Shown here piece by piece: positions 33,141 through 44,800 of a stretch of 64,000 nucleotides of DNA. This stretch comes from Candidatus Daviesbacteria bacterium (GTDB taxonomy: Bacteria > Patescibacteriota > Microgenomatia > Daviesbacterales > UBA10151). The notes beneath the pieces are model-generated. The model was not told the DNA's origin. It worked only from the letters and a program-made list of their open reading frames with translations, and did not search any database. A program made the position numbers and the translations under genes. Position 1 is the stretch's first letter. Each line of letters starts with the position of its first letter. Where the stretch lies: positions 92,117 through 156,116 of the forward strand of contig JAQUSJ010000002.1 of NCBI GenBank assembly GCA_028715175.1. The letters are read 5' to 3'.

Positions 33141-33260
33141 TCCCGGCAGTGAGGTATTTTCACATAACCTTGCGGATATATTATCGTCCCCGCTGAAGTG
33201 TTTGACGACTGAGTTCGGGATGGGATCAGGTCGGACCACTTCGCTCAAATCACCGAGGGT
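33141..33260 (-). rRNA. rrf: 5S rRNA
   Basis: Reverse complement contains CCGAACTCAG...GGTCCGACCTGATCCCATCCCGAACTCAGTCG, aligning to bacterial 5S; about 120 nt. Confidence 0.6.
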
Positions 33261-33314
33261 TACATTATATGACAGATGGAACCAACAGGTCAAATAGGAG
33301 ATTTGCCGGTAGTG

Positions 33315-33806
33315 TTATCTGCCTCCTTCATAATCATACCTGTACATAGTCCTGCCTGCTTCATTTACCGTACCAACATATTTTATCGTTTGATTTTGAT
33401 CATCTCTATTTTCTAAGCGAAATTCTATATTATAAGTATTATTGGCAAGCCTGAGATAGCAAAAATCAGGTCCGCCTGGAGATGAGGGTTCCAGTGGATC
33501 ATGAGGAAGATCTTTTATATGCACAGGCACTAAACCGGTAATATAGCTTGAGGTCCAACTGCTGCAACAGACCCAATTCGGGTCGTTTGGATACTTCCCA
33601 TTTATACTATTGTACGCTTCTAAAGCAATGTTCAAATCACGAAGACTAGACAAACGGTAAGTATCCCTGCTTTTGCTTTGGATGCCACCATAAACAATCA
33701 AACCAATTGTAGACAAAATAGCAATGATGGAGATAACTACCAGCAGTTCAACCATGGTAAAACCATGTTTACACCGGGTATAATCCAGATGAGCAGATTT
33801 ATTCAT
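33315..33806 (-). CDS. Type IV pilin (prepilin N-terminal methylation motif), located between 23S and 5S
   Basis: GFTMVELLVVISIIAILSTIGLIVY. Confidence 0.7.
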   Translation of the reverse strand: MNKSAHLDYTRCKHGFTMVELLVVISIIAILSTIGLIVYGGIQSKSRDTYRLSSLRDLNIALEAYNSINGKYPNDPNWVCCSSWTSSYITGLVPVHIKDLPHDPLEPSSPGGPDFCYLRLANNTYNIEFRLENRDDQNQTIKYVGTVNEAGRTMYRYDYEGGR

Positions 33807-34420
33807 GCCCTGAATATATCATTTACACCCTGAAATGTGAATACGGTCCGGCTTTGCCGGAGAAGGCTCAACTGCCCAACTTCGCTCAAAGAGCTATGTC
33901 GGGCAAAGCAAAAAAATCTCAACGTCGACCATTAGTATTGGTAGGCTAAATACCTTACAGCACTTACACCGCCAACCTATCTTCCGAGGTTAGTCGGAAC
34001 GACTATGCGTTAGCATAATCAACCTGGTAGTCTACCAGGGGTCTAAAAAGATACCTCATCTTGGGGTCTGCTTCGTGTTTAGATGCTTTCAGCACTTATC
34101 AGTTAGAAACGTAGCTACCCTGCGCTGCCACTGTAGTGACAACAGGCACACTAGAGGTTTCCTCATTTCGGTCCTCTCGTACTAGAAATAACTCCCCTCA
34201 AGTATCAAAACGCCCATACTGGATAGAGTCCGACATTATTGTAATCCGCCAACTGGCGGAGCTTGCTAGTTTCTTTTTCCTGCAAGCTCTCCGATTCGCA
34301 TCGGAGGTCCGACCATATCTTGCACGTTCATGTAAACTGAACGTACTCTAGCGTATGGCCTGTGAGGATTCTAGATTTCAGAAAACTCTGAATAACTCAG
34401 TTTGCCTGAGTATCAGATAA

Positions 34421-34789
34421 TCAGAAAATTCCTCCAGATTGCCAGTGAGTATGTAAAGAATTTATCCTTTTTGACAATACCTTATATCTTCCAGCTAAAT
34501 TTTTAGCTTCTAAAAATAGTTTAGGTTGTACTATTGCAATCATTCTTAGATGAGTTATCACCTCATCACTAGAACCTATCGCAATTTTTAGGAATCTTTT
34601 AAATTCTTTATCTGAAACCCGTTTAGCAAATCCTTCAGATATATTTGAAGCTATTGATTTACCTGATCGTTTAACTTGTAAAACCAAATCATATTCTGAT
34701 TTTGGCAATTTCTTGGTTAAATTATATAAGTCAGGTAATAGCTTCAGGGACTCTATGTAAACCTCCAAATCAGAAACATCTTTGATCAT
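34421..34789 (-). CDS. Four-helix-bundle protein (23S rRNA intervening-sequence protein family), encoded inside a 23S insertion near E. coli position ~2593
   Basis: LP..EYDLVLQVKRSGKSIASNISEGFAKRVSDKEFKRFLKIAIGSSDEVITHL matches the S23-ribosomal / four-helix-bundle consensus. Confidence 0.65.
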   Translation of the reverse strand: MIKDVSDLEVYIESLKLLPDLYNLTKKLPKSEYDLVLQVKRSGKSIASNISEGFAKRVSDKEFKRFLKIAIGSSDEVITHLRMIAIVQPKLFLEAKNLAGRYKVLSKRINSLHTHWQSGGIF

Positions 34790-41705: not shown

Positions 41706-41777
41706 TGGGCGGTAATGGTGTCGAACCATTGACCTCTTACTTATCAGATAAGCGCTCTACCGCTGAGCTAACCGCCC
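41706..41777 (-). tRNA. tRNA-Ile (GAT)
   Basis: GGGCGGTTAGCTCAGCGGTAGAGCGCTTATCTGATAAGTAAG...GGTTCGACACCATTACCGCCC; anticodon loop CTGATAA. Confidence 0.7.
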
Positions 41778-41801
41778 AAACTCAAATATTTTATCAGATC
41801 G

Positions 41802-41875
41802 GAGGCCACGATCGGACTTGCACCGATGAATCGCGGTTTTGCAGACCGCTCCCTTAGCTACTTGGGTACGTGGCC
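41802..41875 (-). tRNA. tRNA-Cys (GCA)
   Basis: GGCCACGTACCCAAGT...GCGGTCTGCAAAACCGC...GGTGCAAGTCCGATCGTGGCC; anticodon GCA. Confidence 0.55.
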
Positions 41876-42485
41876 AAGCATACTGTATTTTAGCATAGAA
41901 GAGATTATAGAGAAAAGATTAATTTTTAGAAAACGAGGTAAGCTTGGTTAAAGGCGAGAGACGTTCTTCAGGTCCTGGAATCTCATATGGACAACGCTCT
42001 GCTGATCTCTCAACTGGAGGCGTCTTTCCCTGCCACCAACCTATTATCCCATCTATTAGCCGATGTAGGAAATTTTGCTTTAATGGAATCCGACCTAATA
42101 GAAACGATCTGGGTGACCTATTTACCAAAAGTTTTGCAGAGTGTTCTACAGAATTTAAGCCATAAAACGGCCTCTTCTGCTGCTCTACTCCCAAATCAGG
42201 AAGACTGGTGATATCTGTTCTCTCCATAGGTACACAAAAGTCTAGAGATTTAGACAGAGACCAAGACTCTGGTGATGTACTCATACTTTAAAATAATAAT
42301 TAATACCAAAAGAGTGGTGGGGATAGTGATCATCCCGATTGACTATCAGGATAGCGCGCTATCACGCTTTTCGCCTACCATTCAATAGGCATTTGTCCGG
42401 TCGTGAGACCGAGACTGGATCAAATCCGCGCTTTACCCTGCACCGAATGGTGCGCGGGAATCATCAGATTTGAACAAAACTCCAG

Positions 42486-44800
42486 AAAGGAGGTGATCCA
42501 TCCCCAGCTTCGGCTAGGGATACCTTGTTACGACTTAAGCTTCATCGCCGGTTTCACCTTCGTCGCCTAAGGCGACTTCGGGTGCCCCCGACTTTGCTGC
42601 CTTGACGGGCGGTGTGTACAAGACCCGAGAACGTATTCACCGCGGCACGCTGATCCGCGATTACTAGCAATTCCGACTTCATGGGGTCGGGTTGCAGACC
42701 CCAATCTGAACTGAGGCGAAATTTCAGAGATTAGCTTGCTATTGCTAGCTTGCAACTCGTTGTTTTTCGCCATTGTAGTGTGTTTGTAGCCCAGGGTGTA
42801 AGAACCGTGCTGACTTGACGTCATCCTCGCCTTCCTGTCGCCAAAATGGCGACCTGTTCCGCATGAATTATTTAACATACGGTGAGGGTTGCGCTCGTTT
42901 CATCACTTAAGATAACAGCTCCAAATTTGCTTTTTAGCAACTTTAGACTATACCATCATCCTAATATTTAGGATGTTTAGCGTATAATATGAGTTTATTT
43001 CCAGAATATCTGGTACCTCATATATAAGTCGTTACAGGGTCAAGGAATTTTATAATACATACTAGAATGTATATACGGTCTTACTAACTCGAAGAACTTA
43101 TTCAAACTCTTGCTTCTGATTCTCATGCTTACTCTAGACATTCTGTCTTTTCTTAGGCTTACTTCTATTCCAAAAGACTGTAATACTTTTACTAATTCTA
43201 ATTGACTCTTTTCGTCAAAAGATTGTGTGCAGAAAATACAGTTAGACTTTTGGTTATAACTACCATCATCCATAAACCAAACGGCAATTGATAATGGAGT
43301 TATCCATCTTGATAGATCTTTTGGAAACACTTTATTACCTTGTTGATAAAAAATTTCTCTCCAACTTCTAAAATATTGCCGAGTCCAAAATCTTAATGAC
43401 CTTGTGACTCTATTATCCTTCTTATCAAATCGGACAACATTTTTAAGTCCAGAGTAACTTATCGAACTAAGCTCTTTGTGCTTCCATCTGATGTAATCTT
43501 CTTGTTTACCTGATTGTTCTATTTGAATTTTACCTAACTTAGTTAGATAAGCATCTCCTAATAAACAACCTACAAGAATTTCTACTTGTCTATCAGAAAC
43601 ATACAGTTTTAAGTTCTTACGAGCAGTGAAAACCATCTTCCCGACTTCCCTCGGTATTATCCTTACATTCTAAGTTACCCAAAAGTAACCCGAATGTCAA
43701 TAAGGAATTCACCGATATGAGCTAAATTTTACATCCCGCCTTACGGCGGGAGGGCGCGATTAAATCTTCTTTCAGATTCACGCCACGAGCTGACGACAGC
43801 CATGCAGTATCTGTGCTAACCTTCTTGCGAATTTCTCCTGTTTCCAGGAAATAGGACGCTAGCATGTCAAACCCTGGTGAGGTTTTTCGTTTCGTATCGA
43901 ATTAAACAACACGCTCCACTGCTTGTGCGGGTCCCCGTCAATTCCTTTGAGTTTTAAGCTTGCGCTCGTACTCCCCAGGTGCTCTGCTTAACGCGTTAGC
44001 TGCGACAGTCAGGCAAAACCCGACTATCTAGCAGAGATAGTTTACGGCTGGGACTACACAGGTCTCTAATCTGTTTCGCTCCCCCAGCTTTCGTGCCTCA
44101 GCGTCATGGGTTGGCTAGGTGCCTGCCTACGCCTTCGGTGTTCCCGATGATATCAACGCATTTCACTGCTACACCATCGGTTCCAGCACCCTCTCCAACC
44201 ATCAAGATCCGCCATATTTTGTCCAAATCCCTAATTGAGTTAGGGCATTTCAAACAAAATGCACGGATCAGCCTACGCAACTCTTTACACCCAATAAATC
44301 CGGATAACGTTTGCACTCTACGCATTACCGAGGCTTCTGGCACGTAGTTAGCAAGTGCTTATTCTTCTGGTACCGTCATAATCTTCCCAGATAAAAGGAG
44401 TTTACAACCCGAGGGCCTTCATCCTCCACGCGGCGTCGCTCGATCAGACTTTCGTCCATTGTCGAATATTCCCGGTTGCTGCCATCCGTAGATGTACGGG
44501 CCGTGTCGCAGTCCCGTTGTGGCTGACCGACCTCTCAGTCCAGCTACCCGTCGTCGCCTTGGTAGGCCATTACCCCACCAACTAGCTGATAGGACGCGGG
44601 CTGATCTCAAAGCGCCTTGCGGCTTTAAATTTACATTCACATTGGAAATTACCCAACCTTTCGGCTGGCTATGTCCAACTTCGAGGTACATTCCCGCGCA
44701 TTACTCACCCGTCCACCGGTAGTCGCCTTGCGGCGACCCCCTTGATTTGCATGCCTAAGGCACGCCGCCAACGTTCATCCTGAGCCAGGATCAAACTCTC
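42486..44800 (-). rRNA. rrs: 16S rRNA interrupted by an ~870-nt intron (window ~42905-43775) at E. coli position ~1070
   Basis: Reverse complement has AGAGTTTGATCCTGGCTCAG at the 5' end and GGATCACCTCCTTTCT at the 3' end; CTGCATGGCTGTCGTCAGCTCGTG is followed by non-rRNA sequence, resuming near AACGAGCGCAACCC. Confidence 0.85.
43040..43636 (-). CDS. LAGLIDADG homing endonuclease, encoded in the 16S rRNA intron
   Basis: LVGCLLGDAYL and WFMDDGSYN motifs (double-motif LAGLIDADG); 198 aa; entirely inside the 16S interruption. Confidence 0.8.
   Translation of the reverse strand: MVFTARKNLKLYVSDRQVEILVGCLLGDAYLTKLGKIQIEQSGKQEDYIRWKHKELSSISYSGLKNVVRFDKKDNRVTRSLRFWTRQYFRSWREIFYQQGNKVFPKDLSRWITPLSIAVWFMDDGSYNQKSNCIFCTQSFDEKSQLELVKVLQSFGIEVSLRKDRMSRVSMRIRSKSLNKFFELVRPYIHSSMYYKIP

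Follow-up and report, generated by a model that had tools for sequence, protein, structure and literature searches.

Insertions are frequent in the rRNA genes of the candidate phyla radiation (CPR, or Patescibacteria), where they interrupt 48% of 16S and 82% of 23S genes (Tsurumaki et al. 2024, J Bacteriol, PMC11270868). The same catalogue records group I introns with LAGLIDADG open reading frames (ORFs) at positions 1917, 1931, 1952, 2593, 2604 and 2657, short inserts at the classical intervening sequence (IVS) sites 23IS2 and 23IS4, and 23S_rRNA_IVP ORFs scattered over 16S and 23S insertions, with ORF gain and loss within conserved insertions; as summarized in that article, Brown et al. 2015 found that insertions are removed from CPR rRNA transcripts (PMC11270868). 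Unlinked rRNA genes, defined by more than 1500 bp between 16S and 23S, are likewise common in Patescibacteria (Brewer et al., bioRxiv 10.1101/705046). Here we describe an rRNA locus of a Candidatus Daviesbacteria bacterium, contained in a 64-kb stretch of DNA (contig JAQUSJ010000002.1, positions 92,117 to 156,116; hereafter the window). We hold with good confidence that it is the rRNA gene set of this CPR/Patescibacteria lineage, with three group-I-type introns, two IVS-like hairpins and separate transcription units. Two points temper this reading from the outset: the window is part of a larger contig (at least 165 kb), and promoter use, splicing, RNase III cleavage and endonuclease activity are predictions from sequence alone.

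The locus resembles the catalogued CPR rRNA genes in its LAGLIDADG_1 and LAGLIDADG_2 introns, in the occupied sites 1931 and 2604, in its inserts at IVS sites and in its IVP ORF, and differs from them at site 2604, where the catalogue has mostly LAGLIDADG_1 and we find an IVP ORF (PMC11270868). Beyond that catalogue, the IVP gene appears here as a discrete travelling cassette of ~486 nt, and a hairpin cassette is found at either helix 25 (H25) or helix 45 (H45) of 23S. The 3870 nt between 16S and 23S in the window (42487 to 38616) exceed the 1500-bp criterion and fit the unlinked class of Brewer et al., in which Patescibacteria are among the frequent clades. Unlike the typical unlinked case, the rRNA genes here are close and co-oriented in a conserved neighbourhood, with tRNA-Ile near 16S, tRNA-Ala with 23S and a pilin gene splitting 23S from 5S.

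Classical IVSs excised by RNase III, such as those of Salmonella and Leptospira, occupy the same helices 25 and 45, have near-perfect stems, occur sporadically and lack an ORF in their short forms; the present cassettes, for which excision is a prediction, differ from classical IVSs in that they share identical 19-nt basal modules and have distal arms built of 7-nt periodic repeats. The 23S of Coxiella burnetii, where IVS conservation has been noted, contains an H45 IVS with an S23p/PF05635 ORF as well as a pair of group I introns, of which one has a LAGLIDADG ORF. The two systems are alike in combining a reduced genome with a single 23S that holds an IVS-protein gene and endonuclease-bearing group I introns; they differ in that the IVP ORF of Coxiella lies in the H45 IVS itself, whereas here it is nested within a group I intron and the inserts at H25 and H45 are ORF-less, and in the intron sites, which are 1917 and 1951 in Coxiella versus 1931 and 2604 here. 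The Cr.LSU intron of Chlamydomonas, with I-CreI, sits at L2593 and is a group I intron in the same conserved domain V/VI stretch; compared with it, the insertion described here lies 11 nt downstream (2604), has no LAGLIDADG ORF and follows a C as last exon base.

A probable group I intron in the 16S rRNA gene

We located rRNA genes with Rfam profiles, tRNAs with ARAGORN and protein families with Pfam, took numbering from BLAST against E. coli rrsH and rrlH, and traced the rRNA pieces, tRNAs and proteins through 15 related loci (labelled L002, L005, L006, L011, L015 and so on). Junctions of each insertion were set by alignment to relatives that do not have it. The anatomy of the locus, its exact junctions and protein families, conservation and variability among relatives, RNA covariation and hairpin stability are read directly from these comparisons. 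An earlier note on this DNA had listed the rRNA, tRNA and protein elements described below; all are found, well beyond chance, and the Rfam, ARAGORN and Pfam calls agree with its placing of every one of these genes on the minus strand.

42487-44806, minus strand: 16S rRNA gene, from Rfam SSU pieces and BLAST to E. coli rrsH
43780-44806, minus strand: 16S exon 1, junction against the uninterrupted L002 16S
42922-43779, minus strand: 16S intron, S1078, 858 nt, after E. coli U1078
42487-42921, minus strand: 16S exon 2, junction against the uninterrupted L002 16S
43040-43636, minus strand: predicted LAGLIDADG_2 homing-endonuclease ORF, 198 aa, PF03161 125.4 bits (cut-off 25), E 3e-36

The Rfam SSU model comes up in pieces on this gene (779 bits and smaller), and alignment with the uninterrupted 16S of L002 fixes the intron junction at ...GGCGU/GAAUCUG...AAAUUUG/GAGCUG (slashes mark exon-intron borders), leaving a mature 16S of ~1462 nt. 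The double-motif LAGLIDADG intron proposed in the earlier note is present, with its size corrected from ~870 to 858 nt and its site from ~1070 to just after U1078. Both group I end rules are seen, as the 5' exon ends in U and the intron in G, and an internal guide, GCGCC, pairs with the exon sequence GGCGU. The ORF sits in the P6 loop, its translation contains the two motifs LVGCLLGDAY and IAVWFMDDGS, and orthologues 67-89% identical occur at the same 16S site in L011, L013 and L015.

The structural assignment comes from comparison within a family of introns whose members occupy, in relatives, 16S 1078, a 16S 3'-end site, 23S 2500 and 23S 2657. ORF-less members of this family from L015 match the group I model RF00028 with 35.4 and 30.2 bits (E 4e-7 and 1.5e-5; gathering score 50). 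We aligned the ORF-deleted cores of eight insertions at four rRNA sites, folded the alignment with RNAalifold and added P7 as a pseudoknot, and find helices corresponding to P1, P2, P3, P4/P5, P6 and P7.1/7.2. In this structure 94.6% of cells pair, versus 80.4% in shuffles and 36-47% with slid partners, and compensatory change is seen in 31 of 65 pairs where 16.2 are expected, a count reached by none of 500 shuffles. The P1 guide covaries with the exon sequence across insertion sites, and a U.G pair stands at the splice site in all seven sequences aligned at that column, the eighth being gapped there. These data argue that the S1078 insertion is probably a group I intron, which would carry a monomeric, double-motif LAGLIDADG_2 homing endonuclease in its P6 loop.

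Three points count against this assignment. RF00028 gives no match to the window's own 16S intron even at E<=10 (901 nt searched), and that test was dropped in favour of homology to the ORF-less relatives and covariation; every RF00028 score at the locus falls below the Rfam gathering score of 50; and the alignment in which compensatory changes were counted is also the one that yielded the structure, which makes the count partly circular, with the slid and shuffled controls clear.

The 23S rRNA gene and its intron at position 1931

33915-38616, minus strand: 23S rRNA gene, 4702 nt, ~2958 nt without its four insertions, Rfam LSU 1980 bits
35725-36406, minus strand: L1931 group I intron, 682 nt, exact 1931/1932 junction
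35759-36289, minus strand: predicted homing-endonuclease ORF, LAGLIDADG_1, 176 aa, PF00961 89.3 bits (cut-off 23.1), E 3.5e-25

The extent of the 23S gene is set by two observations: BLAST to E. coli rrlH relocates the 3' domain, with Ec 2637-2782 at 34200-34055, and helix 1 closes at about 33915 through pairing of AAUACUCAAC with GUUGAGAUU. The gene consequently spans 33915-38616, encloses the IVP ORF and is separated from 5S by the first pilin gene. We rejected the boundary given by the Rfam LSU model (35022-38616), under which the IVP gene would be downstream of 23S, since BLAST puts domain VI at 34200-34055. The model reports a complete 1-2925 match and yet misplaces its last ~320 positions. 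This forced 3' end is attributable to an 840-nt intron, and automated annotation would truncate the 23S by ~1.1 kb.

Comparison with the uninterrupted L011 gives the L1931 junction exactly, as ...CUAUGGU/UUUGG...AAUUG/AGCGAAG, in agreement with the LAGLIDADG intron that had been placed at ~1931. We find here each of the marks of a group I intron, namely U at -1, a terminal G, a group I core and a known homing site, and the P1 pairing of GGU/UUU with AAAGCC places a U.G pair at the splice site. The RF00028 score is 25.6 bits (E 2e-4), below the gathering score, with core elements UCAGAGACUAAUACG and AAGAUAGAGUCC present; read as canonical core elements, UCAGAGACUA and AAGAUAGAGUCC are found. 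L015 has an intron 84% identical at this site, and L011 has none. The ORF, which overlaps the intron core, encodes a single motif, WIVGFVDGEG, and the enzyme would be a LAGLIDADG_1 protein of the single-motif, dimeric type.

Both LAGLIDADG ORFs score above their Pfam thresholds and lie inside introns at conserved target sites, which makes them predicted homing endonucleases; the claim that endonuclease-bearing introns of CPR type interrupt these rRNA genes is upheld. The insertions are polymorphic, as L002 is without the 1078 and 2604 introns but has others, and such variable presence among relatives fits the expectation for mobile introns. All three introns of the locus would splice out, with religation of the exons.

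In relatives, the sarcin-ricin loop of 23S is a further site of a group I intron (2657), which is ORF-less in L015 (17726-18102) and holds an IVP cassette in L041 (1223-2053).

An intron at position 2604 with a nested IVP cassette

34234-35073, minus strand: group-I-type intron at E. coli 2604, 840 nt, between Ec 2604 and 2605
34374-34859, minus strand: nested IVP cassette, ~486 nt, a PF05635 ORF with CAGA-rich and UCUG-rich flanks
34421-34789, minus strand: 23S_rRNA_IVP ORF, PF05635 75.8 bits (cut-off 33.8), E 3.6e-21

The earlier note had proposed an insertion of ~800 nt near ~2593 that encodes an IVS protein. We find both the internal 23S insertion and the PF05635 ORF; the insertion measures 840 nt, lies at 2604 (the classical 2593 site is 11 nt further upstream) and consists of a group-I-type intron with a nested IVP cassette rather than a classical IVS. 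Alignment to L002 and L015 gives the junction as ...GACAGC/UUUUAGAG...AAUAAUG/UCGGAC. We propose that this intron is related to the L1931 intron and holds a self-contained ~486-nt PF05635 cassette in the place where CPR introns at this site usually carry LAGLIDADG_1.

A shared stretch of 21 nt (AGAyAATCAGCAGGAAAGACT) in the L1931 and 2604 introns was considered as a relic of a replaced LAGLIDADG ORF, and this was rejected: an equivalent sequence, GGRUAAUAYCGAGGGAAG, is found ahead of the ORF throughout the other intron family, aligned to the P5'/P4'/P6 core, so that the identity reflects the RNA core and no ORF remnant.

The weak point of the intron is its 5' splice site. In the only P1 that the exon sequence allows (ACAGC with ACUGU), the exon ends in a C opposite an A, where a group I intron would have U.G, and we rejected alternative splice sites that restore U.G, as each would leave the joined exons longer or shorter than the uninterrupted L002 and L015 sequence. 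This non-canonical C tells against efficient removal, and the intron could be splicing-impaired or processed otherwise. One may go further and view the insertion as a decayed intron that is now IVS-like, cut out without religation so that 23S is fragmented within domains V/VI; in keeping with this view, the RF00028 score is sub-threshold (31.2 bits, E 6e-6), the confident alignment covers the 3' core only, and an IVS-type protein cassette stands in place of a homing endonuclease. We regard such decay as unlikely, as the intron retains its terminal G, P3 is intact (UCUAGC with GCUAGA), P7 keeps its pairing through changes on both strands (GGCCA with UGGUC where the model has GACUA with UAGUC), and in the 2604 intron of L044 both P8 and P9 are kept as hairpins of different sequence. 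The site is, moreover, next to the peptidyl-transferase region, and a break there would come at a high cost. The C facing A at the 5' splice site may itself be a C.A wobble, which is reportedly isosteric with U.G; the experiments of Doudna et al. in 1989 are said to have shown that it supports 5' splice-site choice in a group I intron. An intron still capable of splicing is the reading that we retain for 2604.

The IVP cassette recurs in different hosts

The IVP ORF covers positions 2-104 of the 106 of the PF05635 profile, a full-length match to this family of four-helix-bundle (S23p/Avd-like) IVS proteins, and the protein has 185 relatives, all with PF05635. The cassette comprises the ORF with ~70 nt upstream and ~47 nt downstream (window 34859-34374), and it recurs with 80-85% nucleotide identity in a 16S 3'-end intron (L039 and L040), at 23S 2657 (L041), at 23S 2500 (L065) and at 2604 (L044). 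Homology stops at the cassette ends, and the cores of the host introns differ. Relatives of the protein at 64-75% amino acid identity are encoded by free-standing genes in murJ/lepA, clpB/yidD or pheS/rplT gaps, and in L042 and L043, the two whose flanks were read, CAGA-rich upstream and UCUG-rich downstream arms are found as in the window cassette. At 16S 1078 the same intron scaffold holds LAGLIDADG_2 in the window, L011, L013 and L015, and IVP in L006; L005 likewise has an IVP-bearing insertion at this site.

With the same cassette present in different hosts and homology ending at its edges, the IVP gene behaves as a module that is mobile independently of its host intron. A bolder and tentative proposal, which we think rather doubtful, is that the IVP gene and its CAGA/UCUG arms may form an autonomous mobile cassette for exposed hairpin-encoding DNA (P6 loops of unrelated group I introns of 16S and 23S, classical IVS helices and intergenic gaps), at some sites in the usual place of the homing-endonuclease gene, with the hairpins at H25 and H45 of the window as its non-autonomous derivatives.

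Hairpin cassettes at helices 25 and 45

37929-38049, minus strand: helix-25 IVS-like hairpin cassette, 121 nt, in the H25 loop of the Rfam alignment
37210-37310, minus strand: helix-45 IVS-like hairpin cassette, 101 nt, between Ec 1159 and 1239

Two IVS hairpin cassettes had been anticipated in 23S, and we find them at H25 and H45, the location of bacterial IVSs, each as an extended stem in place of the native loop. Each folds in the rRNA sense into one long, near-perfect stem, with -71.1 kcal/mol for H25 (z -8.9; antisense -53.4) and -57.7 kcal/mol for H45 (z -9.7; antisense -39.7), and the antisense folds, weaker by ~18 kcal/mol, point to G.U-dependent selection at the RNA level. At their 5' and 3' ends both cassettes have the same mutually pairing 19-nt modules, each of which occurs only twice in the window. 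These properties fit RNase III-type IVSs; the hairpins would be cut out without religation, leaving 23S in three pieces.

L002, L011 and L015 are without either cassette. A close relative known from a metagenome contig, L050, has the H25 cassette of the window (94% identical) at H45, with its H25 empty; the cassettes thus behave as mobile modules. A metagenome scan with the 19-nt module returned 17 matches, of which we accept only L050 as a true cassette homologue; L048 and L057 show a similar H25 design, and the rest were set aside as unrelated GC-rich hairpins or the 16S V1 stem.

The 7-nt periodic arms of the H25 cassette are a repeat dispersed ~15 times over the window, mostly in short intergenic gaps, and the H45 arm type is confined to rRNA leaders and H45. 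This repeat family is enriched in this genome and not in relatives, including the closest, L002. Its members pair periodic CAGTCGT/CAGCTGT arms with CTGATAG arms, the same arm type as in the H25 cassette, and GTCGTCAG and CTGATAGC occur 28 and 22 times in the window where ~2 are expected. Copies lie at ~900-1010, 2970-3130, 3960-4060, 5470-5580, 17920-18040, 18390-18520, 23650-23790, 28180-28300, 30920-31040, 45010-45130, 50340-50440, 56500-56610 and 59490-59630. Some copies fall inside long ORFs (17920-18520 in a 4397-aa ORF at 6010-19203; 30920-31270 in a 470-aa ORF at 29946-31358), where either the repeats are tolerated in frame or the ORF calls are interrupted.

Probable separate transcription units

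45164-45193, minus strand: promoter-like site upstream of 16S, TTGACA-18-TAAAAT, 11/12 consensus matches
42290-42486, minus strand: conserved structured 16S 3' trailer, conserved in 10 Daviesbacteria
41801-41875, minus strand: tRNA-Cys(GCA), ARAGORN
41705-41777, minus strand: tRNA-Ile(GAT), ARAGORN
41270-41698, minus strand: Nudix hydrolase gene, Pfam PF00293
40147-41229, minus strand: pgk, phosphoglycerate kinase, Pfam PF00162, 228 bits
39121-40143, minus strand: gap, glyceraldehyde-3-phosphate dehydrogenase, Pfam PF00044 and PF02800
39088-39117, minus strand: promoter-like site for tRNA-Ala/23S, TTGACA-18-TGaTAAACT, extended -10
38812-38885, minus strand: tRNA-Ala(TGC), ARAGORN
33813-33841, minus strand: promoter-like site before the pilin gene, TTCACA-17-TATATT, 6 nt upstream of the pilin ATG
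33264-33293, minus strand: promoter-like site before 5S, TTGACC-18-TATAAT, 11/12 matches, ending 6 nt before the 5S 5' end
33141-33257, minus strand: 5S rRNA gene, Rfam RF00001, 68 bits

Relative to a canonical rrn operon, we find three protein genes between 16S and 23S, internal promoter-like sites, antisense tRNAs in relatives, and a pilin gene with a promoter-like site before 5S. The promoter-like site ahead of 16S is kept in all three relatives compared (L002, L011 and L015) and is followed by a leader of ~358 nt with a boxA-like TGCACATTAACAA. The site ahead of tRNA-Ala and 23S (TTGACA with TGnTAAAnT) is present in 10/10 relatives in which flanks and upstream genes vary, and is followed by a conserved leader of ~200 nt with a boxA-like CTCTTTTTAACAA. 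Both leader motifs were judged against the boxA consensus. The 5S site is kept in L002, and L015 has TTCACA-17-TATAAT at the same distance from 5S. The 23S leader (38886-39087) is itself conserved across ten relatives (GAGAAGCAACGCAC ... GGGAUCUUCCGGUGCGGGAAGAU ... AGCGUUGUAUCCCUC), followed by the boxA-like CUCUUUUUAACAA.

A second line of evidence comes from the 16S trailer (~190 nt), where compensatory change is seen in 19 of the 48 pairs predicted. Through its end, CCCACCACUCUUUU, the trailer forms a 14-bp duplex with the 16S leader (-27.6 kcal/mol), and this duplex encloses 16S and the trailer alone, with the tRNAs outside. The trailer at 42290-42486 has no Rfam match. The anti-Shine-Dalgarno sequence is locked into the first trailer hairpin (CUCC UUUCU GGAG).

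The orientation of the tRNAs provides a third. The order of tRNA-Cys and tRNA-Ile after 16S is kept among Daviesbacteria and their strand flips independently: both are antisense to 16S in three genomes (L002 9342-9504, L011 7251-7411 and L019 1292-1450), and tRNA-Cys alone in five (L005, L006, L007, L010 and L015). A single inversion would not yield this pattern. We considered whether the antisense calls were an ARAGORN parsing error and rejected this, as the raw sequences of the relatives confirm the orientation.

The earlier note had inferred that these RNAs are co-transcribed or at least co-oriented. In its fullest form co-transcription would mean one operon from the 16S promoter through 5S, with Nudix-pgk-gap and the pilin gene as spacer passengers released by tRNA and rRNA processing. 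All genes are co-oriented and the gaps are short (Nudix 6 nt after tRNA-Ile; pgk-gap 3 nt), the minus strand from 16S to tRNA-Ala has no terminator-like site except weak ones inside genes, and only 4 nt separate the stop codon of gap from the -35 element that belongs to the promoter-like site of 23S. We nevertheless consider a single operon improbable, in view of the conserved promoter-like sites before 16S, 23S and 5S, the boxA-like leaders of both 16S and 23S, the tRNA-Cys and tRNA-Ile genes that are antisense in the closest relative and others, the up to 17 kb of variable genes that separate 16S from 23S in relatives, and the leader/trailer stem around 16S alone. On the same evidence, the rRNA genes are probably co-oriented neighbours, each in a transcription unit of its own.

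Two observations pull the other way and have to be set against separate units. Promoter-like matches in the region number 31, compared with 24 +/- 4.9 in shuffles, so that there is no overall enrichment and only position and conservation lend the individual sites weight. In addition, no terminator is found between gap and the 23S promoter-like site, which would allow read-through from 16S.

In the arrangement that we favour, a first unit would run from the 16S promoter through the boxA leader, 16S and the trailer with its leader/trailer stem, and probably on through tRNA-Cys, tRNA-Ile and Nudix-pgk-gap; a second, with a strongly conserved promoter and its own boxA-like leader, would comprise tRNA-Ala and 23S; and a third promoter would start 5S at its mature 5' end.

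Gene order among relatives

The three tRNAs named in the earlier note, tRNA-Cys, tRNA-Ile and tRNA-Ala(TGC), were recovered by ARAGORN, and Pfam places Nudix, pgk and gap between tRNA-Ile and tRNA-Ala as it had said. Its view that this layout is unusual is not supported. The order 16S, conserved trailer, tRNA-Cys, tRNA-Ile, Nudix, PGK, GAPDH, tRNA-Ala, 23S recurs in ~12 Daviesbacteria relatives, where 0-7 kb of variable genes separate the landmarks and the 16S-23S distance ranges from 3.9 kb (window and L002) up to ~17 kb (L019). The glycolytic genes thus belong to a neighbourhood shared by the whole lineage and are no peculiar insertion here, and the layout fits the published definition of unlinked rRNA genes. 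The PGK relatives among species-representative genomes are likewise from Candidatus Daviesbacteria MAGs, and an orphan ORF of the window matches only one Daviesbacteria MAG protein, at 100% identity.

With so heavy a load of insertions, and with the view limited to 64 kb on a contig that measures 165 kb or more, one might take the locus for a decaying or pseudogenised rRNA copy, or for an assembly chimera, with functional uninterrupted genes elsewhere. We find this very hard to credit. The exons show high conservation (LSU 1980 bits) and retain an intact sarcin-ricin loop, peptidyl-transferase region and anti-Shine-Dalgarno sequence, and the architecture is shared by independent metagenome-assembled genomes (MAGs) from other samples; an assembly artefact is unlikely because one of these, L002, has the same gene order, with pilins and S1 protein 94-95% identical, and because the order recurs in ~12 relatives. 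CPR genomes, furthermore, usually have one rRNA copy, and 82% of their 23S genes contain insertions (PMC11270868). A functional rRNA gene set is thus the reading that we keep.

Nudix lies downstream of tRNA-Ile in most relatives. In the window its ATG is 6 nt past the tRNA-Ile 3' end (41698-41705; 2 nt in L007), with no space for a promoter or a Shine-Dalgarno sequence. Because of this spacing, Nudix and tRNA-Ile must be co-transcribed in this genome, and the 5' end of the Nudix mRNA would come from tRNA 3' processing, giving an almost leaderless message.

A stretch of ~415 nt between the 16S trailer and tRNA-Cys (41876-42289) is unique to this genome. It contains a 121-aa ORF (41919-42284) that has no Pfam match and whose sole database relative is itself, and which we consider doubtful as a gene. 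Elsewhere in the window, tRNA-Ala(CGC) and tRNA-Ala(GGC) stand in tandem on the minus strand (22237-22427), so that, counting tRNA-Ala(TGC) at 23S, three alanine isoacceptors lie within 17 kb.

Pilin genes around 5S

33315-33806, minus strand: type IV pilin-like gene between 23S and 5S, 163 aa, Pfam N_methyl E 1e-7
32526-33083, minus strand: second type IV pilin-like gene, 185 aa, Pfam N_methyl E 4.7e-8

Rfam, Pfam and the relocated 3' end of 23S together bear out a further part of the earlier note, the succession of 23S, a pilin gene, 5S and a second pilin gene. The two proteins match PF07963 with 31.7 and 32.7 bits (cut-off 21.2), and their translations contain the motifs GFTMVELLVVISIIAIL and GFTLVELLIVISIIAIL. 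The first pilin gene has the same position in L002 (94% identity), a pilin gene is likewise placed in L044, and the second is 95% identical in L002. In L015 there is no pilin gene between 23S and 5S, and 105 nt separate the two.

The region upstream of the first pilin gene (GTATTCACATTTCAGGGTGTAAATGATATATT; window 33813-33841) is homologous to the 5S promoter region of L015 (~18350-18418). This homology suggests that a pilin gene came to be inserted downstream of the original 5S promoter, which it would now use, and that 5S gained a new one.

Discussion

The locus is real but largely ordinary, in that its pattern is already on record for CPR: rRNA insertions, including those at site 2604 and those with IVP ORFs, have been published, as have unlinked CPR rRNA genes. 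What we add is modest and comprises the mobility of the IVP gene at the level of the cassette, the exchange of a hairpin cassette between H25 and H45 with its link to a dispersed repeat, an apparent C.A wobble at a splice site, and the evidence for separate promoters. The practical value lies in annotation, as standard rRNA callers place the 23S end wrongly at this locus and break the 16S into pieces; the exact exon junctions given here permit the mature rRNA sequences to be rebuilt.

Three of these additions, each as read from sequence, bear on the biology of the elements themselves. The apparent natural C.A wobble at a group I 5' splice site may be of interest to specialists. A cassette that lies at H25 here and at H45 in a relative, with an arm type dispersed over the window, links rRNA IVSs to elements resembling repetitive extragenic palindromes (REP). 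An IVP gene that behaves as a module moving among introns and intergenic sites offers a comparative handle on the IVS-protein family. Were the cassette indeed autonomous, this would imply an undescribed mobility mechanism, possibly mediated by the IVS protein itself, and would assign a role to proteins whose family has lacked an explanation since 1993.

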